Shown: positions 3,753-63,737, counted from the first letter of the stretch. The stretch is 64,000 bases of DNA from Thermodesulfovibrionia bacterium (GCA_030694425.1 JAUXYI010000063.1:57150-121149); one strand, 5' to 3'. Notes: generated by a model not told the origin, from the letters alone. Numbers and translations are program-made.

Positions 3753-5270
3753 TTAATTTTCTATAAGGCTTTTCCCTCTCATCTCCTCAGGTTTTTTTAT
3801 TTCCATCAATTCAAGTATTGTCGGAGCAACGTCTGCAAGTATGCCATTTTCACGCAACTTTATTCCGTCTTTTAGCAGGATGAAAGGCACAAGATTTGTT
3901 GTATGAGCTGTGTAAGGGCTATCGCCTTCCATCATTTCCTCACAATTTCCATGGTCAGCAGTTATTATAGCTATACCCCCAATGCCCTGGACCTTAGACA
4001 CAATCCTTTCAAGACACCTGTCAATTGCCTCGCATGCCTTTATTGCTGCGTCCATAATTCCAGTATGTCCTACCATATCAGGGTTGGCAAAATTTAATAA
4101 TATAAAATCATATCTGCATTCATCTATTTTTCTTGTAACTTCGTCTGTTACTTCATAGGCGCTCATCTCTGGTTTTAAATCATAAGTTGGGACATCCCTT
4201 GGAGACTTGATAAGGCGCCTGTCCTCTCCGTCAAATGATATTTCCTCTCCGCCATTAAAGAAATATGTAACATGTGCATATTTCTCTGTCTCAGCAATCC
4301 TGAGCTGTTTTAACCCTTTTTTGCTTATAATCTCACCAAGGATATTTGTTAATTTCACTGGCGGGAATGCGACAGGCAGGGTAAAAGTCTCATCATATAG
4401 GGTCATTGTTACATAAGTGCGCAGCCCTGGGATTTTTGCTCTCTCAAAAAAAGTAAAATTCTTATCTGTCAAAGCGGTTGTAAGTTCTCTTGCCCGGTCA
4501 GCCCTGAAATTGAAAAATATTACTGAATTGCCATCCTGTATTTTTCCGTTCGGCTCTTTTCCGCTGCATATAACAGTAGGTTTTATGAATTCATCTGTCT
4601 CGTTAATCTCGTAACTCTGCCTGACGGCCTCTCCTGCTGATTGTGCCTTTTCTCCGTCTCCAAGCACAATGGCATTATATGCCCGTTTTATCCTCTCCCA
4701 TCGCTTATCTCTATCCATTGCCCAGTATCTTCCTGTTACCGTGGCAATCTTTACTTGAGGTTTGTTTTTTATAAAAGATTCAAGCTGTGTTATAAAATTG
4801 ATGCCGGAAGCAGGCAGGGTATCTCTTCCATCCATAAATGCATGGACAAATACTTTTTTGACTCCGTTTGCTATTGCCATGTCAATCAAAGCATAGAGGT
4901 GATTTAGATGGCTGTGCACACCTCCGTCTGAAACAAGACCGAGCAGATGTAAGGCGCCTTCACCAGAAAAATTCATCACGTTAAGAAGGACTGAATTTTT
5001 GATAAAATCGCCGGTTTTTACGGCTTTATTTATCCTTGTATAGTCCTGATAAACAATCCTGCCGGCACCCAAATTAAGATGTCCTACTTCGGAGTTGCCC
5101 ATCTGACCTTCAGGCAATCCCACAGCCCCTCCTGATGCATTAAGGGCTGTATGCGGATATTTCTTTAAAAGACTTTTATAGAAAGGAATATTTGCCTTTT
5201 CCGTGGCATCAACAGCAGGATTGCTTCCTATTCCCCAGCCGTCAAGGACTATAAGGATAAGGGGTCTCAT
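3753..5270 (-). CDS. gpmI: 2,3-bisphosphoglycerate-independent phosphoglycerate mutase
   Basis: Full-length iPGM signature: MRPLILIVLDGWGIG..., metal-binding motifs. Confidence 0.9.
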   Translation of the reverse strand: MRPLILIVLDGWGIGSNPAVDATEKANIPFYKSLLKKYPHTALNASGGAVGLPEGQMGNSEVGHLNLGAGRIVYQDYTRINKAVKTGDFIKNSVLLNVMNFSGEGALHLLGLVSDGGVHSHLNHLYALIDMAIANGVKKVFVHAFMDGRDTLPASGINFITQLESFIKNKPQVKIATVTGRYWAMDRDKRWERIKRAYNAIVLGDGEKAQSAGEAVRQSYEINETDEFIKPTVICSGKEPNGKIQDGNSVIFFNFRADRARELTTALTDKNFTFFERAKIPGLRTYVTMTLYDETFTLPVAFPPVKLTNILGEIISKKGLKQLRIAETEKYAHVTYFFNGGEEISFDGEDRRLIKSPRDVPTYDLKPEMSAYEVTDEVTRKIDECRYDFILLNFANPDMVGHTGIMDAAIKACEAIDRCLERIVSKVQGIGGIAIITADHGNCEEMMEGDSPYTAHTTNLVPFILLKDGIKLRENGILADVAPTILELMEIKKPEEMRGKSLIEN

Positions 5271-5438
5271 TAAAAATTTTACCAGCTACTATTATGCTTT
5301 GTCAAAAAATGTTTGTCCGAGGGTTTCGTAGTTGATTGCATTGTATGAAAAGTATTAAACTTAAAATCTAACCTGATTTTGGTTAGCATGACATAAATAT
5401 TACGTATGGAGAGCATATTCCCACTTTAGGAGATTTTT

Positions 5439-6473
5439 ATGATGGAACTGCATTTTACAAAAACTAACGGCCCTGCGGATGAGGCGATTGACGAATTAAT
5501 CAGGCTTGTTGGCGGCGTACATCACCAGGAACTTATCCGCGAAATGATTCTTGCTGCGCTAAAGGCAGGGCAGGAAGAAGATGACAGGGCAAACCTGAGA
5601 CTTATGAACACCACGATGAAAGAGATGCGGTTTACCGGAAAGATATTTGGAGCCTACCGCAATATACGAAAAGTTACTGTTTTTGGTTCCGCGCGGACAA
5701 AGCCCGATGAGTCAGTTTATGAAGTGGCGCGTCTTTTAGGGCAGAGGCTTGCCGAAGCCGGGTACATGGTTATTACTGGAGGCGGGGGCGGCATTATGCA
5801 GGCAGCCAATGAAGGCGCCGGACCCGGACATTCATTCGGAATTAACATTCAATTACCCTATGAACAGAGACCAAATCCTGTACTTATTGGAAATCCACGT
5901 CTTATTACATATAAATATTTTTTCATTAGAAAAGTGGCGTTTATTAAGGAAGCTGATGCAATCGCGCTTTTCCCCGGCGGCTTTGGCACCCTTGATGAAG
6001 CCATGGAAACGCTTACACTTTTGCAGACAGGGAAGCATAATTTAATTCCGCTCGTTCTTATTGACGAACCAGGCAGCGCCTACTGGCCGAGGTGGCTTAA
6101 GTTTCTTAAAGAAGAATTACTGGCGGATGGTTATATCAGTGAGTCTGATTTCAACCTGTTTGAGTGCGTTGATTCTGTAGACGCTGCAATTGAAAAAATT
6201 AACCGTTTCTACCGTCGTTACCACAGCCTGCGATATGTGAATAAAAAACTTGTAATACGGCTTATATCCAAGGTAGATACTCAATATATCGAGAAGCTTA
6301 ACAAACAATTTTCTGATATCTTAATCCCAGGCGGCAAAATTTATCTTTCTGAACGTTTACCAGAAGAATCTAATGAGATGGAAATTGCTGAACTGCCGAG
6401 ATTAGTAATTAATTTCAACTGCAAGGACTACGGAAGGCTGAGATGTCTTGTTGATGAAATTAATAATTACTGA
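5439..6473 (+). CDS. LOG family protein (Rossmann-fold nucleotide-binding, lysine-decarboxylase-like)
   Basis: TVFGSAR...GYMVITGGGGGIMQAANEGA motif. AGGAG ribosome-binding site upstream. Confidence 0.55.
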   Translation: MMELHFTKTNGPADEAIDELIRLVGGVHHQELIREMILAALKAGQEEDDRANLRLMNTTMKEMRFTGKIFGAYRNIRKVTVFGSARTKPDESVYEVARLLGQRLAEAGYMVITGGGGGIMQAANEGAGPGHSFGINIQLPYEQRPNPVLIGNPRLITYKYFFIRKVAFIKEADAIALFPGGFGTLDEAMETLTLLQTGKHNLIPLVLIDEPGSAYWPRWLKFLKEELLADGYISESDFNLFECVDSVDAAIEKINRFYRRYHSLRYVNKKLVIRLISKVDTQYIEKLNKQFSDILIPGGKIYLSERLPEESNEMEIAELPRLVINFNCKDYGRLRCLVDEINNY

Positions 6474-6576
6474 ACGGAGAAGATAAGAAGATTATCTTTG
6501 TCAAAGGTGAAAAAGCGACCCCTATAAATTTTATAATACAAAGAATTTTGACAAAAACATCTTCACTTTCATGAAA

Positions 6577-6744
6577 TTATAACACAGATTTGTAACAAAA
6601 AATACCGGAATGCATAAAAATTATGGAGTGATTAATTATTTGGGATATTCCCTTATCAGCCTTATCTCTAAATTCTTTAGATACAATATGGGCACAGCCA
6701 AAGATAAGAGATGTTATAGTAAAAAGAATGAGTAAACGTTTCAT
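6577..6744 (-). CDS. small hypothetical lipoprotein-like protein (55 aa)
   Basis: Minus-strand ORF MKRLLILFTITSLIFGCAHIVSKEF... with signal peptide and Cys. Below the ORF-track size cutoff. Confidence 0.25.
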   Translation of the reverse strand: MKRLLILFTITSLIFGCAHIVSKEFRDKADKGISQIINHSIIFMHSGIFCYKSVL

Positions 6745-6840
6745 ATATTTATTATAATAAAAGTTTAAAAGATATTCATTTGTAATTACAGCGTTTTCAG
6801 ATGGATTCCTTTGCTGTATAAATCATAAGCAGAAAAAATT

Positions 6841-8178
6841 ATGGAAACACATGACGATAAAATAAAAAAGAGCCTGAAATACTCCATAATAGACGGCATT
6901 TTTGCTGCATCCATGATTGGTTTCGGGGAATCTTTTTTTGCAGCCTTTGCAGTTTTTCTGAAGGCAAACAACATACAGCTTGGATTATTAAGTTCCCTAC
7001 CCCTTACCATAGGTTCATTATCACAGCTCCTGTCCAATAAATTGATTAAACTTTTCAATTCAAGAAAAAAATTTGTCTATATCATGGCGTTGTTTCAGGG
7101 GTTAATGTATATACCCATAGCCCTTGTATTTTTCTTTGGAGAATTGCGGGTATTTCATCTAATTTTCTTCACATGCCTGTACTGGATATTCGGGATGATT
7201 CTTGGGCCCGCATGGAATAGCTGGATGGGAGATTTAGTGGATGAGAAAGAGCGGGGCGCTTATTTTGGGAAAAGAGGCAAGATTACAGGATTTGCTGCTT
7301 TCGTGTCTTTTCTAATAGCAGGGTACATCCTTCAAAGATTCACCGGCTCAACCGCAACTCAATATATCGGTTTTGTTACAATCTTCTGCCTGGCGCTCAT
7401 ATCAAGAATTATCTCTTTCATTTACCTGACTAAAAAATATGAACCTGAATATAAGGTCGCACATGAAGCAGAATTCAGTTTTTTAGATTTTGTTAAACAG
7501 GCAAGGTTCAGAAATTTTGGTTTATTTGTCATCTATCTCTGCTCAATGAATTTTTCATTATATATATCCGCCCCATTTTTTACTCCTTACATGCTGACTG
7601 ATTTAAAATTAGATTACCTGACATTTACAATCATTAATGTAACAATGATAATCGTAAAACTATTCTTTATGCCTGTGTGGGGCAAGGCATCAGACAGGTT
7701 TGGCAGAAAAAAAGTGCTCAGCTTAACAGGGTTTTTAATGCCTATCACACCCCTTTTATGGCTTTTTTCGCAAAATATTTTTTACCTTATCATAATCCAG
7801 ATATATTCTGGTTTTATCTGGGCAGGGTTTGAAATCTCGTCATTTAATTTTATCTTTGACACAACAACCTCTCAAAAGAGGGCAACCTGCGTAGCATATT
7901 ATAATGTAATTAACGGAGTCTCTATATTAGCAGGCGCCATGACAGGCAGCCTTATTGTTAAATATAATTCTGTTTTCTGGTCAAAATACCTCCTTGTGTT
8001 TGTTGTAAGTTGTCTGCTTAGATACTTAGCCTCATTTATTTTTATCCCCCGGCTTAGAGAAGCAAGACCTGTTGAGGATATAGGATACCCAAGATTGTTT
8101 CTGGAGATTATAAGCACAATGCCGGCAAGCGGGCTTGTGTATAGTTTAATACCTTTCTGGAAAAAAACAGAAAAGTAG
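6841..8178 (+). CDS. MFS-type transporter
   Basis: About 12 predicted hydrophobic segments; MFS-like loop with GRKK. Confidence 0.5.
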   Translation: METHDDKIKKSLKYSIIDGIFAASMIGFGESFFAAFAVFLKANNIQLGLLSSLPLTIGSLSQLLSNKLIKLFNSRKKFVYIMALFQGLMYIPIALVFFFGELRVFHLIFFTCLYWIFGMILGPAWNSWMGDLVDEKERGAYFGKRGKITGFAAFVSFLIAGYILQRFTGSTATQYIGFVTIFCLALISRIISFIYLTKKYEPEYKVAHEAEFSFLDFVKQARFRNFGLFVIYLCSMNFSLYISAPFFTPYMLTDLKLDYLTFTIINVTMIIVKLFFMPVWGKASDRFGRKKVLSLTGFLMPITPLLWLFSQNIFYLIIIQIYSGFIWAGFEISSFNFIFDTTTSQKRATCVAYYNVINGVSILAGAMTGSLIVKYNSVFWSKYLLVFVVSCLLRYLASFIFIPRLREARPVEDIGYPRLFLEIISTMPASGLVYSLIPFWKKTEK

Positions 8179-8230: not shown

Positions 8231-8261
8231 TTGACTTTTTATGAAGCCGATAAGTTATAAT
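8231..8261 (+). promoter_or_regulatory. candidate sigma70 promoter (TTGACT ... TATAAT) driving riboswitch leader
   Basis: Hexamers read from sequence; 19-nt spacer. Confidence 0.4.
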
Positions 8262-8269
8262 CGTTCTGT

Positions 8270-8555
8270 CTTGTTCAGGTGCCCATTTTGGGCTTAAAGG
8301 GGAATCCCGTGAAAGACGGGAGCGGACCCGCCGCTGTAATCCTGATTCCGATTCATTCGGAATAAAAACTTCTATCAGTTAAAGCCACTTTTCCCGATGT
8401 ATCGGGGATGGGAAGGCAGATAGAAATCAGGAGAGCCAGAAGACCAACCTGGACAAAACCTCACATAAAAGCCTTCGTGGTATGAGGTTGTGAAGGTAAA
8501 AGTTATATAGCTTTTATCCCCAGCTTTCATAACGAGGGCTGGGGTTTTTATTTTT
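8270..8555 (+). promoter_or_regulatory. cobalamin (AdoCbl) riboswitch with terminator expression platform
   Basis: AAAGGGGAATCCCGTGAAAGACGGGAGCGGACCCGCCGCTGTAA core, GGGAAGGC, and B12 box AGCCAGAAGACC. Followed by a CCCCAGC...GCTGGGG hairpin plus T-run at 8517-8555. Confidence 0.7.
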
Positions 8556-9134
8556 ATGGCGCATTACATGCATATAAGAGACACTAAAAATATCAAAAAT
8601 GTCACCCTGAACTTGTTTCAGGGTCTAAAAAATGTAGCCGCAAACTTTAGTTTGCGTTTTATTTCGCAGGCTAAAGCCTGCGGCTACACAATTATTATAT
8701 TTTTGTTTCTGCTGTTCACTGTTCACTATTCACTGTTAACCGTCTCTTACGCTGAAACTCCTAACCGTATTATCTCCCTTGCCCGCAGTGTAACGGAGAT
8801 TCTTTTTGCCGCAGGGTTTGGAGATAGAGTCGTGGGCGTAACAAACTTCTGCGACTATCCTCCTGAAGCGAAGCAGAAACCAAAAATCGGGGGCATGTCA
8901 AATCCCTCGCTTGAAGCAGTAGTATCATTAAAACCGGACATCGTTGTATTGACCACTGATGGAAATCCAGAGGAGTTTGAACATAAGCTCCATTCAATGA
9001 AAATAAAAACTCATGTATTCGAAGCAGTTACGCTTCCTGAACTGGCGGATGGTATAAGAAAAATGGGCATTGCCCTTGATGCAAAGGAGAGTTTTAACTC
9101 CCTTGCATCAGGGCGCGGGGCTGTTGCTTCTTGA
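8556..9134 (+). pseudogene. btuF: btuF-like periplasmic B12-binding protein, 3'-truncated remnant
   Basis: Mature-protein homology (ETPNRIISLARSVTEILFAAGFGDRVVGV...) runs about 125 aa and then stops. The reading frame switches at about 9085 into an ABC ATPase C-terminus. Confidence 0.55.
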
Positions 9135-9408
9135 TGAGCCACTTGCAAATCTGGACATAAAATACCAGATAGAACTTCTAAAACTGCTTAAAGAATTGCA
9201 GGAGAAAAGAGAAATAGCGGTTTTGATGGCGCTTCATGATATAAATATTGCCTTGCAGTTTGAAAAGATAATACTAATCAAAGAAGGGAAAGTTCTCAGT
9301 ATTGGTAAGCCTGAAGCGGTGCTGACAGAAGATTTACTTAAGCAGGCATTTGATGTTGTGGTTGAAATTAAAAGACATGACTCAGGAGGAGCGTATATAA
9401 AGTATTAA
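9070..9408 (+). pseudogene. btuD: btuD/fecE-like ABC ATPase, C-terminal fragment only (post-signature, Walker B LLLLDEP, H-loop)
   Basis: Begins right after the ABC signature region. No Walker A and no permease gene. Consistent with a roughly 2 kb deletion fusing btuF to the end of btuD. Confidence 0.55.
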
Positions 9409-10044: not shown

Positions 10045-10178
10045 ATGTCTTGTCATTGCGAGGCGAAGCCGAAGCAATCTCTAAAGACGAGATTCCTCGC
10101 GGAGTTTACCCTGAGCGAAAAGGCGAGATTCTTCACTTCGTTCAGAATGACTGAGAGCGAAGGGCTCGGAATGACAAA
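10045..10178. repeat. GTCATTGCGAGG...CTCGGAATGAC palindromic intergenic element
   Basis: Shares termini with elements at 21588, 31043, 32869 and 63648. The ORF-track 10027..10212 is its spurious translation. Confidence 0.45.
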
Positions 10179-19771: not shown

Positions 19772-19829
19772 TAAATAAAAAGTTCAAAAATGGGAAGTAA
19801 GAAGCAGAAATAAAAAAATCAAGGGAATA

Positions 19830-19980
19830 AAAACGAGGAAAGGGGTGAGAATCCCCTGCTGTCCCGCAGCCGTAAAGGGAACGAAAACCCAACAGAAGTC
19901 ACTGTGCCGAATCTTCGACATGGGAAGACGGGTAAGTAGGCAGCCCTGAGCCGGAAGACCGTTTGTTCCCGCAACCTCGA
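19830..19980 (+). promoter_or_regulatory. cobalamin riboswitch (variant)
   Basis: GTGAGAATCC, CCCGCAGCCGTAAAGGGAA, GTCACTGTGCC, GGGAAGACGG, GCCGGAAGACCG. Upstream of the outer-membrane protein / cbiMNQO block. Confidence 0.55.
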
Positions 19981-19996
19981 CGGAAGGAGAAAAAAA

Positions 19997-27437: not shown

Positions 27438-29301
27438 AGGCAACAAGACAGAAGTCAGAAGTCAGCCTTCAGCCTTATTTTACATAACAGACAAGGGACT
27501 TATGCTTGCCAAAAAGCTCAAAGAACTTTTCCCTAATTCACAGATGGTGAAATTTAAATCAGAGGCTGTTTCTGAGGTCTGGAGCGAGTGCAAAAATCTA
27601 ATATTCATCATGGCAGCAGGAATTGTTGTCAGGACTATCGCCCCCTTAATAAAAGGCAAAAGGACAGATCCTGCTGTTGTTGTGCTGGACGAGAAAGGGG
27701 AATATGCAATCAGCCTTTTAGGTGGACATCTTGGAGGTGCAAATAAGATTGCAAAGGAGATTGCTGATTTCTTAGGAGGCAGAGCGGTAATAACAACAGC
27801 ATCTGATGTAAATAATCTGCCAGCCATAGATTTATGGGCAAGAGAAAATAATTTAGTGGTAGAAAATTGGGATTTGCTGCCGAAAATTGGTACGCTGCTT
27901 TTAAACAAGGGTTTTTTGAAAGTCTATGCGGATATAGGTATTAAATTGACTGACAAATTACAAAAAACAGACAATCCTGAAACTGCTGACATCCTTATTA
28001 CAAACAAAAACAACCTGTTTGCTCATACACCCATTCATCTTTATTTAAGACCCAAAAATCTTATTATTGGTATTGGCTGTAACAGCGGAACATCAGCAGA
28101 TGAAATAGAAGACGCTGTTAAAAGTATACTGGCGGAAAACAATCTATCATTTCTATCGGTTTACTCCATAGCGACCATTGATAAAAAAAGCAGCGAGCCT
28201 GGTCTGATTGCATTCACTGAAAAGTATGGTTTTAAGGTTAAAACGTTCACATCCGACGAACTGAATAATGTCAAAGGTGTAGTGAAATCAGAAGCTGCAT
28301 TCAAAGCAACTGGAGCCAAAGCAGTAGCAGAGCCAGCAGCATTACTCGCATCAGGAGCAAAGAAACTGCTTGTGCCAAAACAAAGGATAGGAAATGTCAC
28401 GATAGCAATAGCACTCAAAGGCAGTAACGAGTTACAAGTAACAAGTAACAAGTTAAAAAATAAAGGCTCGTCACTCGTCACTCGTCACTCGTCACTTTAC
28501 ATCGTTGGCACTGGCCCGGGAAGCATTGAACATATTACGCCTTATGCCCAAAATGCAATAAGAAACTCCGATGTTATAGTTGGATACGGCACATATCTTG
28601 AACTAATACAGGAGTTAATTAAGGATAAAGAAGTCGTATCCACAGGCATGACGCAGGAGATAGACAGATGTAAAAGAGCAGTGGAACTGGCAATGTCAGG
28701 AAAAACCGTTTCTATCATAAGTGGTGGAGACCCTGGTATCTATGCCATGGCAGGATTGGTGTTTGAAATATTGAAAAACAGTAACGAGTTACAAGTAACA
28801 AGTAACAAGTCAGTAGAGAGTCGGGAGTCAAAAAACTCGTCACTCGTCACTCGTCACTCGTCACTTATTGATGTTGAGGTTATTCCCGGTATTTCTGCCT
28901 TAAATGCCTGTGCAGCAAGGCTCGGTGCGCCACTCATGCATGATTTTGCATGCATAAGTCTTTCTAACAGGCTTACGTCTTGGGATTTGATAGAAAAAAG
29001 ACTTGAGGCCGCTACAACGGCTGATTTTGTGATTGTGCTTTATAACCCAAAGAGCATGGGCAGGCAGGGGCATATCAATAAGGCAAGGGATATCATCTTG
29101 AGATATAGAACTCCTGAAACACCTGTGGGAATAGTAAAGTCTGCAATGAGGGAGAACGAAAAAATAATCATTACAAATCTTAAAGACATGCTTGACCACG
29201 ATATTGATATGCAGAGCACGGTAATTATCGGGAATTCGCAAACATTTTTATGGGAAGGGTGGATGATAACACCGAGGGGATATGCAAACAAAAAACAGTG
29301 A
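27421..29301 (+). CDS. cbiGH: CbiG fused in frame to precorrin-3B C17-methyltransferase CbiH
   Basis: CbiG homology to about aa 340. A repeat insertion at 28425-28500 replaces the cbiH start. Then LYIVGTGPG...GGDPGIY. Confidence 0.8.
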   Translation: MNTENKGNKTEVRSQPSALFYITDKGLMLAKKLKELFPNSQMVKFKSEAVSEVWSECKNLIFIMAAGIVVRTIAPLIKGKRTDPAVVVLDEKGEYAISLLGGHLGGANKIAKEIADFLGGRAVITTASDVNNLPAIDLWARENNLVVENWDLLPKIGTLLLNKGFLKVYADIGIKLTDKLQKTDNPETADILITNKNNLFAHTPIHLYLRPKNLIIGIGCNSGTSADEIEDAVKSILAENNLSFLSVYSIATIDKKSSEPGLIAFTEKYGFKVKTFTSDELNNVKGVVKSEAAFKATGAKAVAEPAALLASGAKKLLVPKQRIGNVTIAIALKGSNELQVTSNKLKNKGSSLVTRHSSLYIVGTGPGSIEHITPYAQNAIRNSDVIVGYGTYLELIQELIKDKEVVSTGMTQEIDRCKRAVELAMSGKTVSIISGGDPGIYAMAGLVFEILKNSNELQVTSNKSVESRESKNSSLVTRHSSLIDVEVIPGISALNACAARLGAPLMHDFACISLSNRLTSWDLIEKRLEAATTADFVIVLYNPKSMGRQGHINKARDIILRYRTPETPVGIVKSAMRENEKIIITNLKDMLDHDIDMQSTVIIGNSQTFLWEGWMITPRGYANKKQ

Positions 29302-30751
29302 CGAGTTACGAGTAACGAGTAACAAGTCAGTAAAGAGTCGGGAGTCAAAAAACTCGTCACTCGTCACTCGTCACTCGTCACTTAAAAATGATGTTGCCTT
29401 TTTGTGGGATGAGTCTCTTCTATGGGGATTAATGGCATATAAGGCATTGAAGTCACGTAACCTGCCTTTTAATATTATTCGTTCTGCTGATATTAAAAAC
29501 AGGCAACTCAAAAATTACAAAATGCTATTTGTCCCTGGTGGATGGGCATCAAATAAGCTAAAGGCTCTCGGTAAAAAGGGCATCACTGAGATAAAAAGAT
29601 TTGTCAGAGGCGGAGGCAATTACCTCGGTCTTTGCGGCGGTGCAGGGCTTGCAACTCAGGAGAGTGTAGGACTCTTAAATGTCAGGAGAAGACCTACAAA
29701 GAACCGCGTCCCGAGCTTCAGCGGGAAGATATATCTAAATATAAGTGAGCATCCTATCTGGAATGGTTTGGTTGGAGGAAACAGCAATGAAAATAGTGCA
29801 AATACGGTAATTCAAAATAACTCATCACTCATCACTCCCCGGCCTCGTCCCGAAGCGTCGGGACGGGGCGGGCATTACTCGTCACTGCCTTTTCATGCCT
29901 GGTGGCCATCGCAATTTTTAGTAGAGGATAAGGGTATAAAGGTACTTGCTATATTTGGAGGCGCCTTACCGGATTCTTTCAGCTCTGACCTAAATATCGG
30001 GGATGTAGAGGCAGATGGCAGTTGGGCTGAACTTGAAAAAATCTATAAGATAAATCTTAATCCTGAAAAACTTATAAACGAGCCTGCTGTTCTGGAAGGC
30101 AGTTATGGACTTGGTAAAGTAATTTTATCACTTATCCATTTTGATACCACTCAGGACAGGAATGGTGCTGAGGTTTTAAAAAATCTATGGGAATATCTCG
30201 CAGGACAGAAGACAGAAGTTAGGAAGATAAGAAATTGGGAAGATAAGAGCCTCTCAACTTCTCAACTTATAGGCTCCAAAACAAACCTGTCACTGCTCAA
30301 GGAACTTGAAATGTTAGTTGATGAGTTGATTTCCCTCGGCGAACGGAATTTCCTCTGGTTCTGGCGAAACCCAATGCTTCTTCAGTGGCGGAGGGGAGTA
30401 AGGGGGCTTGAATACTGCACGCTGTATGTGATGATAAAAGAGATTACCGCAATACTTAAAAATGGACAAGTAGCGAAAGCCAGGGGACAAAGAAACATTG
30501 AATTATTAATTGGAGATAGCTTGGGGAGAATCAGGAGATTGCTTATACCATTTATAGAAAAAACCAAACGCTTACTAATCATGGAAAGGTATGCCTTACA
30601 GAATGGACATATCACCTATGAGAGATGTGATAGTCCAGAGATTCAGAAATTAAGGTGTGAACTTTTCTCCACCTCAAAAAGCCATGGAGGATTGTTCAAA
30701 AAACTTATTGATGAAGTGGACAAAGTTTTGTATAGTTTGTTGATTAACTAA
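29282..30751 (+). CDS. class-I glutamine amidotransferase-like (BPL_N-type) domain protein
   Basis: LFVPGGWASN...GGGNYLGLCGGAGLA. N-terminus sits in a repeat element. Second insertion at 29815-29890. Confidence 0.35.
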   Translation: MQTKNSDELRVTSNKSVKSRESKNSSLVTRHSSLKNDVAFLWDESLLWGLMAYKALKSRNLPFNIIRSADIKNRQLKNYKMLFVPGGWASNKLKALGKKGITEIKRFVRGGGNYLGLCGGAGLATQESVGLLNVRRRPTKNRVPSFSGKIYLNISEHPIWNGLVGGNSNENSANTVIQNNSSLITPRPRPEASGRGGHYSSLPFHAWWPSQFLVEDKGIKVLAIFGGALPDSFSSDLNIGDVEADGSWAELEKIYKINLNPEKLINEPAVLEGSYGLGKVILSLIHFDTTQDRNGAEVLKNLWEYLAGQKTEVRKIRNWEDKSLSTSQLIGSKTNLSLLKELEMLVDELISLGERNFLWFWRNPMLLQWRRGVRGLEYCTLYVMIKEITAILKNGQVAKARGQRNIELLIGDSLGRIRRLLIPFIEKTKRLLIMERYALQNGHITYERCDSPEIQKLRCELFSTSKSHGGLFKKLIDEVDKVLYSLLIN

Positions 30752-30813: not shown

Positions 30814-30966
30814 ATGGAAAAGAAAAAAAATAAAACCACAAACAAGAAGGAGTCAAGGACAAAACCAGATGTTATTTCTTATCACCTGAAATGCGCAAAG
30901 ACAGCTAACGGATTAACTCATTTTGTAATGTACGGAGATGTGGCAAAGAAACAGATGCCATTGTAA
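30814..30966 (+). CDS. small Lys-rich peptide (50 aa), candidate precursor or partner of downstream radical SAM/SPASM enzyme
   Basis: Strong ribosome-binding site AGGAGGTG 7 nt upstream of the ATG. Sequence MEKKKNKTTNKKESRTKPDVISYHLKCAKTANGLTHFVMYGDVAKKQMPL. Confidence 0.35.
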   Translation: MEKKKNKTTNKKESRTKPDVISYHLKCAKTANGLTHFVMYGDVAKKQMPL

Positions 30967-31137: not shown

Positions 31138-31165
31138 AATACAAATAAAAAGAAGGAGGAATATC

Positions 31166-32509
31166 ATGAGTAAAAACCACAGGGAGCTTTCGTTTTCTGA
31201 TATTGATGATAAGTGGAAGTTGGCACTTGATCCTGACAACATTTTTTGGGGAGTAATAACCAAAAATAATGGAAATTTTTTATTGCCTGATGACTTGATT
31301 GACCTTTACAAAAAAGAACGGAAACATCTTGATTCCGAGATTCATGATTTCAGATTTAATACTGATTTAAACTGCATATATATTGACCCCACTGACAGGT
31401 GTAATGCCAATTGTACTTACTGTTATATTCCCTCAAAAATAAGAAAACACGGCGTACAGATGGATAGTAAACAATTAGACTCTCTATTAAAAAAGATTGC
31501 CGCTTATTTTAAAAATTCAAAAAAGAAGCCGGTAATTGTTTTTCATGCGGCTGAGCCTTTACTGGTAAAAAATATCCTTTTTGATGCAATACATAGATTC
31601 CGCAGTCAATTTCTTTTTGGACTTCAGACTAACGCACTCTTGCTTGAAAAAACGGATGTGGAGTTTTTAAAGAAACACCGAGTAGGCGTTGGTATATCGC
31701 TTGATTCTCCGGATGCTGATATAAATAACCGACAGCGGGTAAGTGTAAGAGATGGAGGCAATTTTGAAAAAGCGGTACAGGCGATTAAGTGGTTCAATGG
31801 TTATGAGGGATTAAATGTAATCACAACTGTTACAAAACACAATGTCAGCCAGTTGTCAGATTTGGTGAAATTTTTTCATGCAAAAAAAGTTAGCTGCGTA
31901 CTTTTTAACCCGGTCAGATTAACCCAAAAACCTTCATTAAACCTGAAACCTGATGAAAAAGTGTTTGCTGAATATTTTATCACTGCTGTTGAAAAGGCAA
32001 TAGAGTTATCAAAAAAATCAGGTCGCCAGATTGTAATAGGTAATTTTGCAAATGTAATACTTGCAATAATATCACCGACTGCCAGACGGATGATGTGCGA
32101 TATATCCCCTTGCGGAGGAGGCCGCACTTTTATGACAGTTACTGCTAACGGCGATATGGTTCCGTGCGGAGAATTTATTGGTTTGAAAGAATTTGCAGGC
32201 GGAAATATTTTTGAGACATCAATTTCAGAGGCTATGAACTCCGAGTCGTTTAAGAAAATCAGGGCAAGGATTGTGGAAAAAATTGATGAATGCAATGTAT
32301 GTGATTTCAGAAATATATGCGGTGCGCCATGTCCTGCAGAATTACATGCACGAGGCAATATGTACCAAAAAGCAGAATTCTGCGAATTCTATAAAGAGAT
32401 AATAAGATATGCCTTTAAATTAATAGCTGAAGATAAGGTTAAATATCTTCTTCGGGAAGATGCGATACAGCAGCTTAAGTATGAGTATAAATATTCTGAT
32501 AGAAATTAA
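31166..32509 (+). CDS. radical SAM/SPASM domain protein (anSME or peptide-maturase-like)
   Basis: CNANCTYC (Cx3Cx2C). C-terminal SPASM cysteines CGGGRTF...CNVCDFRNICGAPCP. AGGAGG ribosome-binding site before the ATG at 31166. An 85-aa N-terminal extension precedes the radical SAM core. Confidence 0.8.
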   Translation: MSKNHRELSFSDIDDKWKLALDPDNIFWGVITKNNGNFLLPDDLIDLYKKERKHLDSEIHDFRFNTDLNCIYIDPTDRCNANCTYCYIPSKIRKHGVQMDSKQLDSLLKKIAAYFKNSKKKPVIVFHAAEPLLVKNILFDAIHRFRSQFLFGLQTNALLLEKTDVEFLKKHRVGVGISLDSPDADINNRQRVSVRDGGNFEKAVQAIKWFNGYEGLNVITTVTKHNVSQLSDLVKFFHAKKVSCVLFNPVRLTQKPSLNLKPDEKVFAEYFITAVEKAIELSKKSGRQIVIGNFANVILAIISPTARRMMCDISPCGGGRTFMTVTANGDMVPCGEFIGLKEFAGGNIFETSISEAMNSESFKKIRARIVEKIDECNVCDFRNICGAPCPAELHARGNMYQKAEFCEFYKEIIRYAFKLIAEDKVKYLLREDAIQQLKYEYKYSDRN

Positions 32510-32563
32510 TTGTAGCCGCAGACTTTAGTCGGCGTTCTTAAACTGTGATTGACAGTTCAAATA

Positions 32564-32778
32564 GGTATTCCAGAGGAATCTCGTGAAAAACGAGAACTGC
32601 CCCGCAACTGTAAAGGGAGCGAAAACCTAAAAAGGCAGTGAAGAGTAAACAGTGAATAGTTAAGAGTTACAGAATTCAAAAACTTTTAACTTTCAACTGC
32701 TTTTAAGTCACTGTCCCGAAGCGTCGGGACGGGAAGGCAGGTGAGTAGAGAGCCCTAAGTCAGGAGATTCCGAATACC
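32564..32778 (+). promoter_or_regulatory. cobalamin riboswitch with no downstream gene (orphan)
   Basis: P1 GGTATTC...GAATACC. GTGAAAAACGAG, CCCCGCAACTGTAAAGGGAGC, GGGAAGGC, AGTCAGGAGA. Next plus-strand product is only a 6-aa ORF. Confidence 0.6.
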
Positions 32779-32868
32779 TTTTAAAAACCAATACCCTTCG
32801 AGGGAAGAGGAGGCAACATGAGAAATAACACATCGTAAAATTAGTCAATCCAAACGCATAGATAAAGT

Positions 32869-32950
32869 GTCATTGCGAGGAGCAAAGTGGTTGCGAAGCG
32901 AAGCTGAAGCAAACTCGGAGATTCCTCTGGTATTCAGGCTGAATTGAATG
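32869..32950. repeat. GTCATTGCGAGGAGC... element
   Basis: Same family as 10045 and 63648. Confidence 0.4.
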
Positions 32951-32959
32951 ATGTTTTAC

Positions 32960-33343
32960 TTATTGTTTTGAGGAGTATTTCTTAAACCATTCAACGATAT
33001 TTTCCAATGAGACTTTGCATGTAGCCACCTTAATGGTAAATAGCTCAAGTTCGTTCTGTGTGGTTTTGAGATAATAACCATTTATCTGAAGAAAAATACC
33101 TGCAGATGTTATGGCAGTTCTCTTATTCCCATCAATGAAGGGGTGATTTTTTATGAGAGATTCCATCAAGGCAGCAGCTTTATGGCAGATATCGGGATAT
33201 AGATCTTCGCTCCCGAATGTTGCTTTTGGCCTTGAGACAGCAGATTGAAGAAGCCCCAAATCCCTGATGCCGTGAGAGCCGCCTGTTTCATCAATGAGCC
33301 TGCTGTGAATAAAGAGAACCTGCTCTGCAGTAAGGTATCTCAC
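32960..33343 (-). CDS. doc: Fic/Doc family toxin (death-on-curing)
   Basis: HPFIDGNKR motif. Confidence 0.8.
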   Translation of the reverse strand: MRYLTAEQVLFIHSRLIDETGGSHGIRDLGLLQSAVSRPKATFGSEDLYPDICHKAAALMESLIKNHPFIDGNKRTAITSAGIFLQINGYYLKTTQNELELFTIKVATCKVSLENIVEWFKKYSSKQ

Positions 33344-33588
33344 TTCTTTGCGAGTTCTTTGAGCGCCGGTTCGTATTTTGCAATAAAATCATTCACCTGA
33401 GCAACAAATTCCTTATCAATGTTCTTAGGGTATTTCTTCTTTCTCACTGGTTCAATAACTATTCTTGAACTCTTTTCGTCAAGTTTTACGTCAATTTCGG
33501 AACCGACTGACAGATTGAGCTTTTCAAGCACATCAAGCGGGATTGACACCCCTTGACTATTGCCTATAGAACATATCTTTCTATGCAT
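33340..33588 (-). CDS. AbrB/MazE-fold antitoxin (Phd-like partner of Doc)
   Basis: SpoVT/AbrB swapped-hairpin pattern. Overlaps the doc start. Confidence 0.6.
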   Translation of the reverse strand: MHRKICSIGNSQGVSIPLDVLEKLNLSVGSEIDVKLDEKSSRIVIEPVRKKKYPKNIDKEFVAQVNDFIAKYEPALKELAKK

Positions 33589-33604
33589 AATTGCCTCCGT
33601 ACCA

Positions 33605-33745
33605 ATGTTATAACATAATTATAACAGAAAGCAATATTTCCTTTTCCCTTAAACTCCAAGATTCCTTTGTCTCTGAGACTCTATCCGAATCGGACTGACG
33701 GATTGTGGGGCGAATGTGTTTGTTGTCGGGATGAAGCTTAAGGAT
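33605..33745. repeat. toxin-antitoxin island boundary repeat copy 1 (AATCCCTTTGTCT ... GGATTGTGGGGCGRATG family)
   Basis: Read directly. Six copies, all in the same orientation. Confidence 0.4.
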
Positions 33746-33755
33746 GATGTATAGT

Positions 33756-34112
33756 TCAAGGGAGCGGACTAATTCTGATTCTGCCAGGACTGATAACAGC
33801 TACTTTATTTTTGAGTCTGTGGAGTTCTATTTTTTTAAAAGATCCTTTAAAAATATTTGTAATAATCGGAGCTTTGAAATTTGCTGGAACACGAATTAAT
33901 ATTACTCCAAAAGGTGCAGGCCTTAATTTTGGTATGGGGTAATCAAGGTCTCTTGTAACAATAATGCTTTTCTCCTTTGCAGCCTTAGCCCAGAGGATTT
34001 TATCTGAAGACCCTCTAAGATTTGAAGCTGCGACATCAAAAACATCATGTTTTAATGATGAGAGAAATTCTACGATTCCGAATGGCAGGTTTTCGTCAAC
34101 GAGAAACCGCAA
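33756..34112 (-). CDS. DUF5615 (Mut7-C/PIN-like) putative toxin
   Basis: RFLVDENLP start motif. TTG start overlaps the upstream DUF433 gene. Confidence 0.55.
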   Translation of the reverse strand: MRFLVDENLPFGIVEFLSSLKHDVFDVAASNLRGSSDKILWAKAAKEKSIIVTRDLDYPIPKLRPAPFGVILIRVPANFKAPIITNIFKGSFKKIELHRLKNKVAVISPGRIRISPLP

Positions 34113-44332: not shown

Positions 44333-46486
44333 ATGGAAAAAGTTCCCACAATATGTCCATACTGCGGCTGTGGCTGCGGTCTTTATCTCCATGTTGATAA
44401 AGGCATTATATGCGGTGTCTCTCCAAGCAGAAACCATCCGGTAAGCAAAGGCAGTCTCTGCGTTAAAGGCTGGAACTGCTATGAATTTATCCAGCACCCT
44501 GACAGGCTTACAAAACCACTTATTAGAATAAATTCTAAAGAACATACAACGTCAAAAAAAAATCCCCCCTTACCCCCCTTTAGCAAAGGGGGGCGTGGGG
44601 GGATTAACTCGTCACTCGTTACCCATAACTCATCACTATTCCGTGAGGCCTCATGGGATGAGGCTCTAAGTTATATCGCTAAAAAACTCACAAAGATAAA
44701 AAATACTTCTGGTCCGGATTCTATCGGGGTCCTGAGCTCCGCCAAATGCACGAACGAAGAAAATTACCTGATGATGAAATTTGCAAGGGCAGTATTAGGG
44801 ACAAATAACATTGACCACTGTGCAAGGCTCTGCCATTCATCCACATTAGGCGGCCTTGCAAGCACATTTGGTTCAGGAGCAATGACTAATTCAATAAGCG
44901 AGATAGCAGATGCCAGGGTTATTTTTGTCATAGGTTCAAATACCACTGAACAGCATCCAATGATAGGGATGCACATGCTTGATGCCGTGAACAGAGGTGC
45001 TATATTGATGGTTGCCGACCCCAGAAGGAACATGATTGCAGAGCTTGCGCATATTCACTTGAAGCATAAGAGCGGTACAGATGTGGCGCTGCTTAACAGC
45101 ATAATGAATGTCATTATTAATGAAGGGCTTGTTGATATCGCATTTATAAAAAGAAGAACAGAGAATTTTGACGAGTTTGAGAAGGTTATAAGCAAATATT
45201 CGCCAGACATAGGTGAGGCTATAACAGGTGTTTCAGCAGATGATATAAGAAAGGTTGCGAGGATGTATGCAGCAGAAACCAGGTCTATGCTGTTTTTTTC
45301 AATGGGGATAACACAGCACATTACCGGTGTTGATAATGTTCGTGCTTGTGCCAACCTTGCAATGCTTACTGCGCATGTTGGACATGCTATGACAGGGCTT
45401 AATCCTCTGAGGGGACAGAATAATGTGCAGGGTTCATGCGACATGGGGGCAATTCCAGAGGTATATTCAGGCTATCAGAATGTTAAGGACGCATCAGCAA
45501 GGAAAAAATTTGAGGCCGCGTGGGGAGTAAGCCTTCCCAAAAAGTCAGGACTTACGCTTATAGAAATGCTGAACGCCTCCCGAAGAAACAAGTTAAAGGC
45601 AATGTATATCATGGGCGAAAATCCCGTTATATCAGACCCGGATGTAAAGCACACTATTGAGGCGCTAAAAAAGCTTAATTTTTTAATTGTACAGGATATA
45701 TTTATGACAGAAACTGCTAAATTTGCACATGTTGTTCTTCCCGCGGCAAGTTTTGCCGAGAAGGAAGGGACTTTTACAAATACAGAAAGAAGGGTGCAGA
45801 AGATCAGGAAAGCAATTGAACCTGCCGGCAAAGCAATGCCCGACTGGCAGATAATATGCGAACTCTCAAAGAAGATGGGATATAACATGGATTATAAAGC
45901 GCCTTATGAGGTAATGGAGGAAATAGCGCTTCTTACCCCATCATACAGGGGCATACTGCATCACAGGCTTGATGACGGCTATGGTCTGCAGTGGCCATGC
46001 ACAGATGTTAATCATCCCGGCACCCAGTTTTTGCACAGAAAAAAATTTGCAAGAGGACTTGGCTCATTTATACCTGTTCATTACCTCCCTCCTGACGAGC
46101 AGCCTGATGAAAAATATCCATTTATTCTTACAACCGGAAGGAGTTACTTCCAGTACCATACAGGAACCATGACCAGAAGAACCACAACACTTGAGAGAGA
46201 ACAGCCAGAATGCACTGTGGAGATTAATGCTGAGGATGCAGAGCAGTTTGGCATTAAGAACAGGGCCAAGATAAAGGTTTCAACAAGGAGAGGCAGCATA
46301 GAGGCTGTTGCAGATGTCACTGATAAGATAATTCCGGGCACTATTTTTATCCCTTTTCATTTTCATGAAGCATCAGCGAATGTGCTTACAAATCCTGCCC
46401 TTGACCCTTATGCAAAAATCCCGGAATATAAAGTATGCGCTGCAAAGGTAGAAAGGATACATGAAGAAAGACCTTATATTAAATAA
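44333..46486 (+). CDS. fdhA: formate dehydrogenase alpha subunit (molybdopterin oxidoreductase), Cys-type
   Basis: N-terminal 4Fe-4S motif CPYCGCGCG. HCARLCHSS has Cys at the position of the selenocysteine/cysteine ligand. In-frame C/G hairpin insertion at 44555-44640. Confidence 0.85.
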   Translation: MEKVPTICPYCGCGCGLYLHVDKGIICGVSPSRNHPVSKGSLCVKGWNCYEFIQHPDRLTKPLIRINSKEHTTSKKNPPLPPFSKGGRGGINSSLVTHNSSLFREASWDEALSYIAKKLTKIKNTSGPDSIGVLSSAKCTNEENYLMMKFARAVLGTNNIDHCARLCHSSTLGGLASTFGSGAMTNSISEIADARVIFVIGSNTTEQHPMIGMHMLDAVNRGAILMVADPRRNMIAELAHIHLKHKSGTDVALLNSIMNVIINEGLVDIAFIKRRTENFDEFEKVISKYSPDIGEAITGVSADDIRKVARMYAAETRSMLFFSMGITQHITGVDNVRACANLAMLTAHVGHAMTGLNPLRGQNNVQGSCDMGAIPEVYSGYQNVKDASARKKFEAAWGVSLPKKSGLTLIEMLNASRRNKLKAMYIMGENPVISDPDVKHTIEALKKLNFLIVQDIFMTETAKFAHVVLPAASFAEKEGTFTNTERRVQKIRKAIEPAGKAMPDWQIICELSKKMGYNMDYKAPYEVMEEIALLTPSYRGILHHRLDDGYGLQWPCTDVNHPGTQFLHRKKFARGLGSFIPVHYLPPDEQPDEKYPFILTTGRSYFQYHTGTMTRRTTTLEREQPECTVEINAEDAEQFGIKNRAKIKVSTRRGSIEAVADVTDKIIPGTIFIPFHFHEASANVLTNPALDPYAKIPEYKVCAAKVERIHEERPYIK

Positions 46487-63647: not shown

Positions 63648-63737
63648 GTCATTGCGAGGAGCGATTTAAGCGACGAAGCAATCTCTAATTCATCGAGTTA
63701 TATGAAAGCAAGATTGCTTCGCTTTGCTCGCAATGAC
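63648..63737. repeat. GTCATTGCGAGGAGCG...CTCGCAATGAC palindromic element
   Basis: Near-perfect 90-bp palindrome between purH and radC. Confidence 0.55.

Follow-up and report, generated by a model that had tools for sequence, protein, structure and literature searches.

Several described systems lie close to the locus considered here. In E. coli, the riboswitch leader of btuB imposes translational repression, and this is followed by Rho-dependent termination (PMC12360218). In M. tuberculosis, a B12 riboswitch upstream of ppe2 masks the Shine–Dalgarno (SD) sequence of a translated upstream ORF (uORF), uPPE2, whose translation is needed for the downstream gene (Kipkorir et al. 2024, PMC11260477). 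uPPE2 overlaps ppe2 by AUGA and works by termination–reinitiation (PMC11260477). There are also B12 riboswitches without ORF cargo, including Listeria AspocR (antisense to pocR) and Rli55, and E. faecalis EutX, where read-through gives an antisense or sequestering RNA (PMC8079631). Finally, mgtL/mgtA, tnaC, and speFL are Rho-coupled leader-peptide attenuators (PMC12360218). The locus described here shares features with each of these. In a window of DNA from a Thermodesulfovibrionia bacterium (the whole stretch that was analyzed, 64,000 nucleotides), an intact cobalamin riboswitch has likely lost its btuB-tonB cargo, and so become an orphan, through a deletion of about 2.9 kb, a reading that we base on comparison with related loci.

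An initial sequence-only reading of the window had called a third B12 riboswitch at this site, and it is a genuine one. An Rfam cmscan of the whole window returned a plus-strand match to RF00174 at 32513-32788, spanning the full model (1-189) with 49.5 bits (E = 2.4e-09), where the gathering score of the family is 31.5 bits. Two further cobalamin riboswitches were found in the same scan, at 8260-8466 (89.8 bits) and 19794-19981 (71.9 bits); the latter had been put forward for covariance-model scoring together with the site at 32513-32788, and both lie above the threshold. The radical SAM gene seen upstream is cbpB (31166-32509, plus strand), which encodes a peptide-modifying radical SAM/SPASM enzyme and is the last gene of a cbi-cbpAB operon. 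Its product scored 513.9 bits against NCBIfam TIGR04163 (cutoff 375) and matched Pfam Radical_SAM and SPASM, and its homologues are named CbpB by their sources. Upstream of cbpB is a 50-aa CbpA-like ORF and, further upstream, a long anaerobic cobalamin-biosynthesis operon.

This 50-aa ORF (30814-30966) has a strong SD, sits directly upstream of cbpB, and is found beside cbpB in most of the 79 loci from species-representative genomes that formed our CbpB comparison set (42-100% identity, tblastn). It is presumably the CbpA precursor peptide; no NCBIfam model matched it at E ≤ 0.01, and a literature search on CbpA/CbpB with cobalamin found nothing relevant. A separate observation concerns the biosynthesis genes, in which palindromic heptamer-rich repeats (AGTAACGAGTTACAAG ... 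CTCGTCACTCGTCACT) lie in frame at 28420-28500, 29290-29390, and other cbi sites. The resulting peptide inserts (e.g., ..ELQVTSNK..SSLVTRHSSL..) occur in a cbiG/cbiH fusion, a BPL_N-like ORF, and cbiL, and are reminiscent of Rickettsia palindromic elements.

Downstream of the riboswitch, on the minus strand, a convergent toxin–antitoxin module occupies 32960-33588. The doc toxin gene (32960-33343) was identified by Pfam Fic and TIGR01550, in keeping with the doc/phd module first proposed, but the partner (33340-33588) is of the MazE/AbrB type (Pfam MazE_antitoxin) and not Phd. Beyond this module are more toxin–antitoxin pairs, a DpnII-type restriction-modification system, and a HEPN/nucleotidyltransferase pair, and then housekeeping genes. 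The earlier view that no gene is left for the riboswitch to control also held up, as ORF lists for both strands, with a lower limit of 20 aa, revealed no missed plus-strand gene within 1 kb downstream. These lists gave only a six-codon mini-ORF and a 26-aa frame, the latter consisting of a repeat and a tonB remnant (both described below). The riboswitch is consequently without a downstream B12-related gene in cis in the window, which does not affect its membership of the RNA family. We also considered whether btuB might lie farther downstream, past an inserted island, and rejected this, since the 717-aa ORF at 44333 is a molybdopterin oxidoreductase and not a TonB-dependent receptor.

Comparison with related genomes, which the sequence-only reading had proposed for this site, showed that btuB-tonB occupies it in relatives. 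Proteins 73-96% identical to CbpB come from Nitrospirota/Thermodesulfovibrionia metagenome assemblies. In the closest informative relative, L003 (CbpB 82% identical), the order is cbpA, cbpB, a riboswitch (57.1 bits), ATGAGAAATAACACATCCTGA (MRNNTS*), a repeat element, btuB (615 aa, with Plug and TonB-dependent receptor domains), tonB (247 aa), and a convergent doc/mazE. The doc gene in the window is 93% identical to that of L003 (tblastn), where doc and its antitoxin follow tonB. The contig of L160 keeps the L003 order as far as a partial btuB, where it ends, and L004 keeps it through tonB and continues with cobU and cobT. Among the 79 CbpB loci, approximately 60 have no riboswitch after cbpB and other genes follow directly. 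In all nine cbpB-linked riboswitch loci with enough DNA (L002, L003, L004, L012, L021, L029, L035, L078, and L160), a btuB-like receptor comes next. At one of these, L012, the btuB match (5149-6985) falls into two segments that overlap and differ in reading frame (199- and 145-aa ORFs), which reflects either a frameshifted pseudogene or an assembly error.

The association extends beyond cbpB. An exact search of metagenome contigs with the 19-nt expression-platform motif CCCTTCGAGGGAAGAGGAG yielded 76 loci. All of the approximately 66 in which a riboswitch is present and the motif is followed by more than 250 nt carry a btuB-like gene 90-335 nt after the motif, and the three matches without btuB are also without a riboswitch. 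In some metagenome loci the riboswitch unit follows unrelated genes, for example btuFCD. The TonB-dependent receptor gene btuB is usually accompanied by tonB in relatives, and the orphan arrangement was seen in none of the approximately 75 other informative loci, which leaves the window as the sole orphan. Because most cbpB loci have no riboswitch, and btuB follows wherever one occurs with enough DNA behind it, the riboswitch is, on the evidence of gene order, an element of btuB and not of cbpB.

The aptamer extends from the 5′ strand to the 3′ strand of P1 (32563-32779, plus strand), as defined by RF00174, the minimum free energy (MFE) fold, and covariation. P1 pairs AGGTATTC (32563-32570) with GAATACCT (32772-32779). 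This is the helix recognized in the sequence-only reading; it is upheld by the MFE fold and by covariation over 56 relatives, and it differs from the outer helix forced by the covariance model, which is poor. P1 is closed in the MFE fold of 32560-32850 (-78.4 kcal/mol, z = -3.7), and six of its eight pairs are canonical in 44-54 of the 56 non-redundant relatives, with compensatory changes that alternate among T-A, C-G, and T-G and also include G-C and A-T. Support is weaker for the two innermost pairs (canonical in 37/56 and 26/56). The four loop-proximal pairs of P4 are canonical in 54-56 of 57 relatives, as CG, GC, AT, and TA. All of the core elements are present, namely the B12 box AGTCAGGAGA (32758-32767, plus strand, placed by the RF00174 alignment and the consensus of relatives, and already noticed earlier), the GGAA junction, CUGCCCCGCAACUGUAA, and GGGAAGGC. 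Five departures aside, the core agrees with the consensus of 57-66 relatives.

The variable region had been described as carrying embedded repeats, and these are unusual in part only. The supposed minihairpin, GTCCCGAAGCGTCGGGAC (32713-32730, plus strand), turned out to be the ordinary, canonical aptamer hairpin before GGGAAGGC; it aligns to the RF00174 consensus gCCACUGgcc..ggcCGGGAAGGc, and its sequence is swapped for other self-complementary ones in L003 (GGGCTTAAAAGCCC) and in L001, the locus with the most similar CbpB (96% identical). The heptamers, given as (CAGTGAA)n, do lie inside the variable region, but there are just two copies, 14 nt apart. Both are contained in a P6-extension insert (32628-32707, plus strand), a long hairpin that is stable in the MFE fold. 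This insert is common to L003, L160, and L001, and its left arm bears a weak resemblance to a repeat family scattered through the window.

A further hairpin lies just 5′ of P1 (32541-32557, plus strand; AACTGT / GATTG / ACAGTT) and was recognized by covariation. It covaries in most of 57 non-redundant relatives regardless of the upstream gene, with variants such as GCTGCC..GGCAGC, ACTGTC..GACAGT, GCTGCT..AGCAGC, and GCCGTC..GACGGT. Unlike the P2 hairpin of the Rfam model, it is outside P1, and there is complementarity between its 3′ arm (GGCAG/GACAG) and CUGCC in the P5 region. The conserved upstream TTGAC(A/G) was considered as a -35 box and rejected, as it is the 3′ arm of this covarying hairpin. 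Consensus scans of the plus strand gave neither a promoter-like nor a terminator-like site near the riboswitch, with no terminator-like site in 32300-33800 and no sigma-70-like promoter belonging to the riboswitch, which lies 3 nt after the cbpB stop codon. Since such sites were not found near the switch, it is probably co-transcribed with cbpB.

The expression platform follows the aptamer at 32794-32814 (plus strand). It consists of the conserved CCCTTCGAGGGAAGAGGAG(G), delimited by exact recurrence and the MFE fold, and forms a predicted hairpin that overlaps the SD. In the MFE pairing, CCCUUC is joined with GAAG(A)GG, i.e., CCCUUC[GAGG]GAAG(A)GG, and the 5′ half of the SD is occluded. The 19-nt motif recurs exactly in 73 riboswitch-bearing metagenome loci, although its sequence across these loci was fixed by the search itself, which used an exact query. 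Complementarity between L5 and the platform loop, and between the P1 3′ strand and the SD, was viewed by eye with a kissing-loop/anti-SD arrangement in mind; given a platform fixed by the search, we claim no such model. On the minus strand, the complement of the platform hairpin together with TATTGGTTTT (32794-32809) scores as intrinsic-terminator-like for transcripts arriving from the doc/antitoxin side.

The start codon of this platform is that of a six-codon ORF at 32818-32838 (plus strand), ATG AGA AAT AAC ACA TCG TAA (MRNNTS*), which begins 3-4 nt after a GAGGAGG SD and has an equal layout in all relatives. The sequence-only reading had located this ORF correctly but treated it as negligible, which it is not; its peptide is conserved, in 41 non-redundant loci, and it is probably the direct target of the riboswitch. 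Across those loci, the ORF has exactly six codons and follows the motif M-R-x-[D/N/E]-T-[G/S/T]-stop. The first codon is ATG in all, and the second is AGA in 36/41. The third is variable, as is the fourth, which is mostly D, N, or E. The fifth is ACN in 37 (with third bases reported as A22, T6, G7, and C6) and AGY in three, and the sixth is GGN in 25, TCN in eight, AGY in five, and ACN in two. All three stop codons (TGA, TAA, and TAG) are used. Because serine is drawn from two unrelated codon families (TCN and AGY) and third positions are free, the pattern points to selection at the level of the peptide and not for RNA pairing. In L001, the ORF is frameshifted (MRQQHILK*).

The riboswitch's score of 49.5 bits is within the range of relatives that retain btuB (47.5, 53, 54.9, 57.1, 60.2, 62.8, and 83 bits), and both the platform motif and the mini-ORF are intact. 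Counting only positions conserved in at least 90% of 57-66 relatives, there are five departures, three of which fall on two P3 pairs. G32575-to-A and C32768-to-T together make a compensated P3 pair (G-C to A-U), the change at 32769 weakens the second P3 pair (G-C to G-U), and those at 32757 and 32771 are uncompensated. With a score in the range of functional relatives, one P3 pair compensated, one weakened, and two changes uncompensated, we found no clear evidence of aptamer decay. With the platform motif and mini-ORF intact, the deletion must be of recent date unless the element remains in use; the intact aptamer, platform, and mini-ORF fit either case.

Divergence from L001 gives a different picture, as identity is approximately 99% up to about 32640 and then falls abruptly to approximately 75%. 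The cbpB gene is 97% identical to that of L001, and its synonymous sites (94.9%) are far above the 3′ two-thirds of the riboswitch. Past about 32640, the window is L003-like in part (in a comparison starting from L001 3672 onward). Relaxed constraint or neutral drift relative to L001 was rejected as the cause, since the abrupt change and the L003-like stretch indicate a recombination mosaic; they point to a recombination boundary inside the aptamer, near 32640.

The trace of the missing genes is found at the junction. By blastn, window positions 31141-32840 align to L003 1894-3595 at 79.7% identity, and 32924-33846 align to L003 6510-7443 at 90.3%. The intervening segment of L003 (3596-6509; 2,914 nt), which comprises the leader spacer, btuB, the intergenic region, and all of tonB except its last 7 codons, is replaced in the window by 83 nt. 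This filler (32841-32923, plus strand) has no counterpart in L003 and is made up of 28 unique nt and the left half of a GTCATTGCGAGGAGC repeat (32869-32923). A repeat element after the ORF had been noted from the sequence, and it is present from 32869 onward, but as half of an element only; a full copy with both inverted termini is found at 63648-63737, and a variant at 10052-10170 shows that the junction GAGATTCCTC is repeat-derived. Directly after the filler are the last seven codons and stop of tonB (32924-32947, plus strand; ..PLVFRLN*), matched by blastn to the 3′ end of L003 tonB, whose product ends ..PVVFRLN*. The tonB stop is 12 nt from the doc stop in both. Of the possibilities first raised for this riboswitch, that of a relic whose cargo gene was deleted is thus the one supported by the comparison, with btuB-tonB standing between riboswitch and doc in relatives and the last codons of tonB kept in the window. 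The most economical history would be a deletion running from inside the leader-spacer repeat to near the end of tonB.

A 16-nt inverted repeat (15/16 complementary) links the 5′ side of the aptamer (32567-32582) and the repeat/tonB-remnant junction (32918-32933). A related 19-mer (16/19) lies at 33651-33669, on the far side of doc/antitoxin. The inverted repeat is absent from L003 and is probably a repeat-derived chance match.

A second deletion in the same B12 locus affects the other side of corrinoid import. Downstream of the first riboswitch, an ORF at 8556-9134 covers only the first ~122 of 266 BtuF positions, and of a BtuD/HmuV-type ATPase only the last ~100 residues are left, in an ORF at 9070-9408. 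The btuF and btuD segments are 14 nt apart, versus 1.83-1.95 kb, with an intact btuF-btuC-btuD, in 12 metagenome loci. This btuF'-'btuD deletion lies in unique sequence, and riboswitch 1 (8260-8466) now effectively heads cobU, cobT, and subsequent genes. Together, the two losses suggest a genome that is shedding corrinoid import, with outer- and inner-membrane parts lost and the full biosynthetic cluster kept.

We propose the following sequence of events. In Nitrospirota/Thermodesulfovibrionia relatives, the 5′ hairpin, aptamer, SD hairpin, and six-codon ORF together head a btuB-tonB operon for outer-membrane corrinoid uptake. Bound B12 would stabilize the platform hairpin, so that the SD is occluded and the leader ORF is left untranslated, as expected from the SD-occluding hairpin and from characterized B12 switches (PMC11260477; PMC12360218). 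Expression of btuB would then fall, either by termination that depends on Rho or because unmasking by ribosomes is lost. In the lineage of the window, a deletion of about 2.9 kb, from the repeat in the leader spacer to tonB codon -7, would have taken btuB and nearly all of tonB, and the riboswitch would now gate the MRNNTS mini-ORF only. Any transcript reading through would enter the convergent doc/antitoxin pair in antisense and would most probably have no selected function. Such a loss would fit the wider shedding of corrinoid import by an organism encoding the full biosynthetic pathway. It concerns the site in the window, and there may be a btuB copy elsewhere in the genome.

Of the other explanations, a retained function as a noncoding RNA ranks highest, though we consider it unlikely. 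The sequence-only reading had raised this as well, and it could take the form of read-through at low B12 that is antisense to doc and the antitoxin, as in AspocR, or of a leader acting in trans as a B12-sensing small RNA, as with EutX or Rli55. The aptamer and platform are intact, 12 nt separate the tonB remnant from the convergent doc, the scan of 32300-33800 gave no terminator-like site on the plus strand, and the Listeria systems (reviewed in PMC8079631) offer precedents. However, tonB and doc already converge in L003, so the convergence is older than the deletion. Because the geometry was inherited in this way, the position of the riboswitch opposite doc is not evidence of design, and the orphan state was not seen in any of the ~75 informative loci.

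An assembly artefact is a highly improbable explanation. Here, the strain would still carry btuB-tonB, and the assembler would have collapsed a leader-spacer copy of the GTCATTGCGAGG repeat with a second one close to the 3′ end of tonB. The junction does lie inside a repeat family found elsewhere in the window, and the genome tolerates in-frame repeats inside genes. An independent assembler gave two Logan contigs from run SRR13727538 that are identical to the window on both junction flanks. L162 contains cbpB, the riboswitch (with the same RF00174 score of 49.5 bits), the mini-ORF, and filler to 32917, and L161 starts at 32898 and takes in doc, mazE, DUF5615, and DUF433. Both end within the repeat, where they overlap by only 18 nt, and neither alone bridges the junction, which is what a collapse would also allow. 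Nevertheless, collapse of complete copies would leave a complete element, and the window has half of one, which lacks the right terminal inverted repeat. The repeat stretch in common is also shorter than 60 nt, below typical read length, and the flanks on both sides were reproduced. Finally, the similar btuF'-'btuD deletion, in unique sequence, makes the loss biologically coherent and therefore a real loss of btuB-tonB more likely than an artefact. The weakest explanation, that the folded aptamer serves as a 3′-UTR element of the cbi-cbpAB operon and as a B12-dependent stabilizer, destabilizer, or terminator of the biosynthetic mRNA, draws on the position of the riboswitch 3 nt after the cbpB stop and its probable co-transcription in the lack of a sigma-70-like promoter, but it is barely credible when ~60/79 cbpB loci have no riboswitch, btuB follows wherever a riboswitch and enough DNA are present, and the unit also follows unrelated genes (btuFCD) in metagenome loci.

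Orphaning by deletion of btuB-tonB thus remains our preferred reading, and it provides a clean, datable example of the process, in which a repeat-associated deletion took the cargo and left the sensor, platform, and leader ORF intact. It also has practical consequences, as annotation pipelines and riboswitch-based regulon inference would misassign the target at an orphan site. The orphaned riboswitch itself is ordinary and is explained in kind. The part worth following is the conserved hexapeptide leader that the riboswitch probably gates. In this btuB riboswitch subfamily, the platform starts a conserved six-codon ORF at a fixed spacing to btuB, rather than btuB directly.

The leader stop lies 60-76 nt before the btuB start in 27/39 loci. 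In the Thermodesulfovibrionia loci, this distance is 167-252 nt, which results from repeat insertions. Other arrangements also occur in the metagenome loci. In approximately 17, the equivalent SD and ATG start btuB directly, in some cases with an N-terminal extension beginning MRKD/MREDAR, and further loci have leader variants of 7-10 codons. MFE folds of 29 short-spacer leaders revealed no consistent pairing between the mini-ORF and the btuB SD, and in the literature searched we found no description of btuB riboswitches with a conserved hexapeptide leader. From its conservation and placement, the six-codon ORF is probably a riboswitch-gated leader peptide. A more specific proposal, which we hold to be about equally likely to be right or wrong, is that the B12 riboswitch gates the hexapeptide leader, and that btuB, fixed 60-76 nt downstream, is licensed either when the leader is translated or by stalling or termination at the leader stop codon. 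Such a relay would be widespread among uncultivated Nitrospirota and among other bacteria of sediment and groundwater, and the window would hold an orphaned, intact copy that could, after the deletion, drive B12-dependent antisense transcription into doc. To our knowledge, M. tuberculosis is the single experimentally studied case of interplay between a B12 riboswitch and a uORF. If the relay exists, such interplay reaches a large environmental clade, and the loci would offer a compact system in which to study how a riboswitch signal is passed on via a mini-ORF.

Set against the systems described at the outset, the locus is a composite. It is like the E. coli btuB leader in its aptamer family (RF00174), its B12 box, its btuB cargo (in relatives), and, as we infer for this locus, translational control via an SD hairpin. 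It differs in that the cargo has been deleted, the switch follows cbpB, inside an operon or as its last element, the start codon in the platform is that of the six-codon leader ORF, and there is an extra conserved hairpin before P1. Similar to M. tuberculosis ppe2, the SD and start codon of a short ORF lie in the platform directly after the aptamer. Unlike uPPE2, the leader here has six codons and a conserved peptide, and it ends 60-76 nt (up to ~250 nt) before btuB. Because AUGA termination–reinitiation cannot apply at 60-76 nt, the coupling mechanism must differ. For AspocR and EutX, a similar geometry is possible, as the riboswitch faces the convergent doc. However, AspocR, Rli55, and EutX are conserved and were shown experimentally, while the arrangement in the window occurs in a single genome and is explained by deletion. 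The Rho-coupled attenuators also have a short conserved leader ORF, the translation status of which decides downstream transcription or translation, as we predict here. In contrast to mgtL, tnaC, and speFL, translation of the leader at this locus would be set by a metabolite-binding RNA and not by ligand sensing through the peptide.
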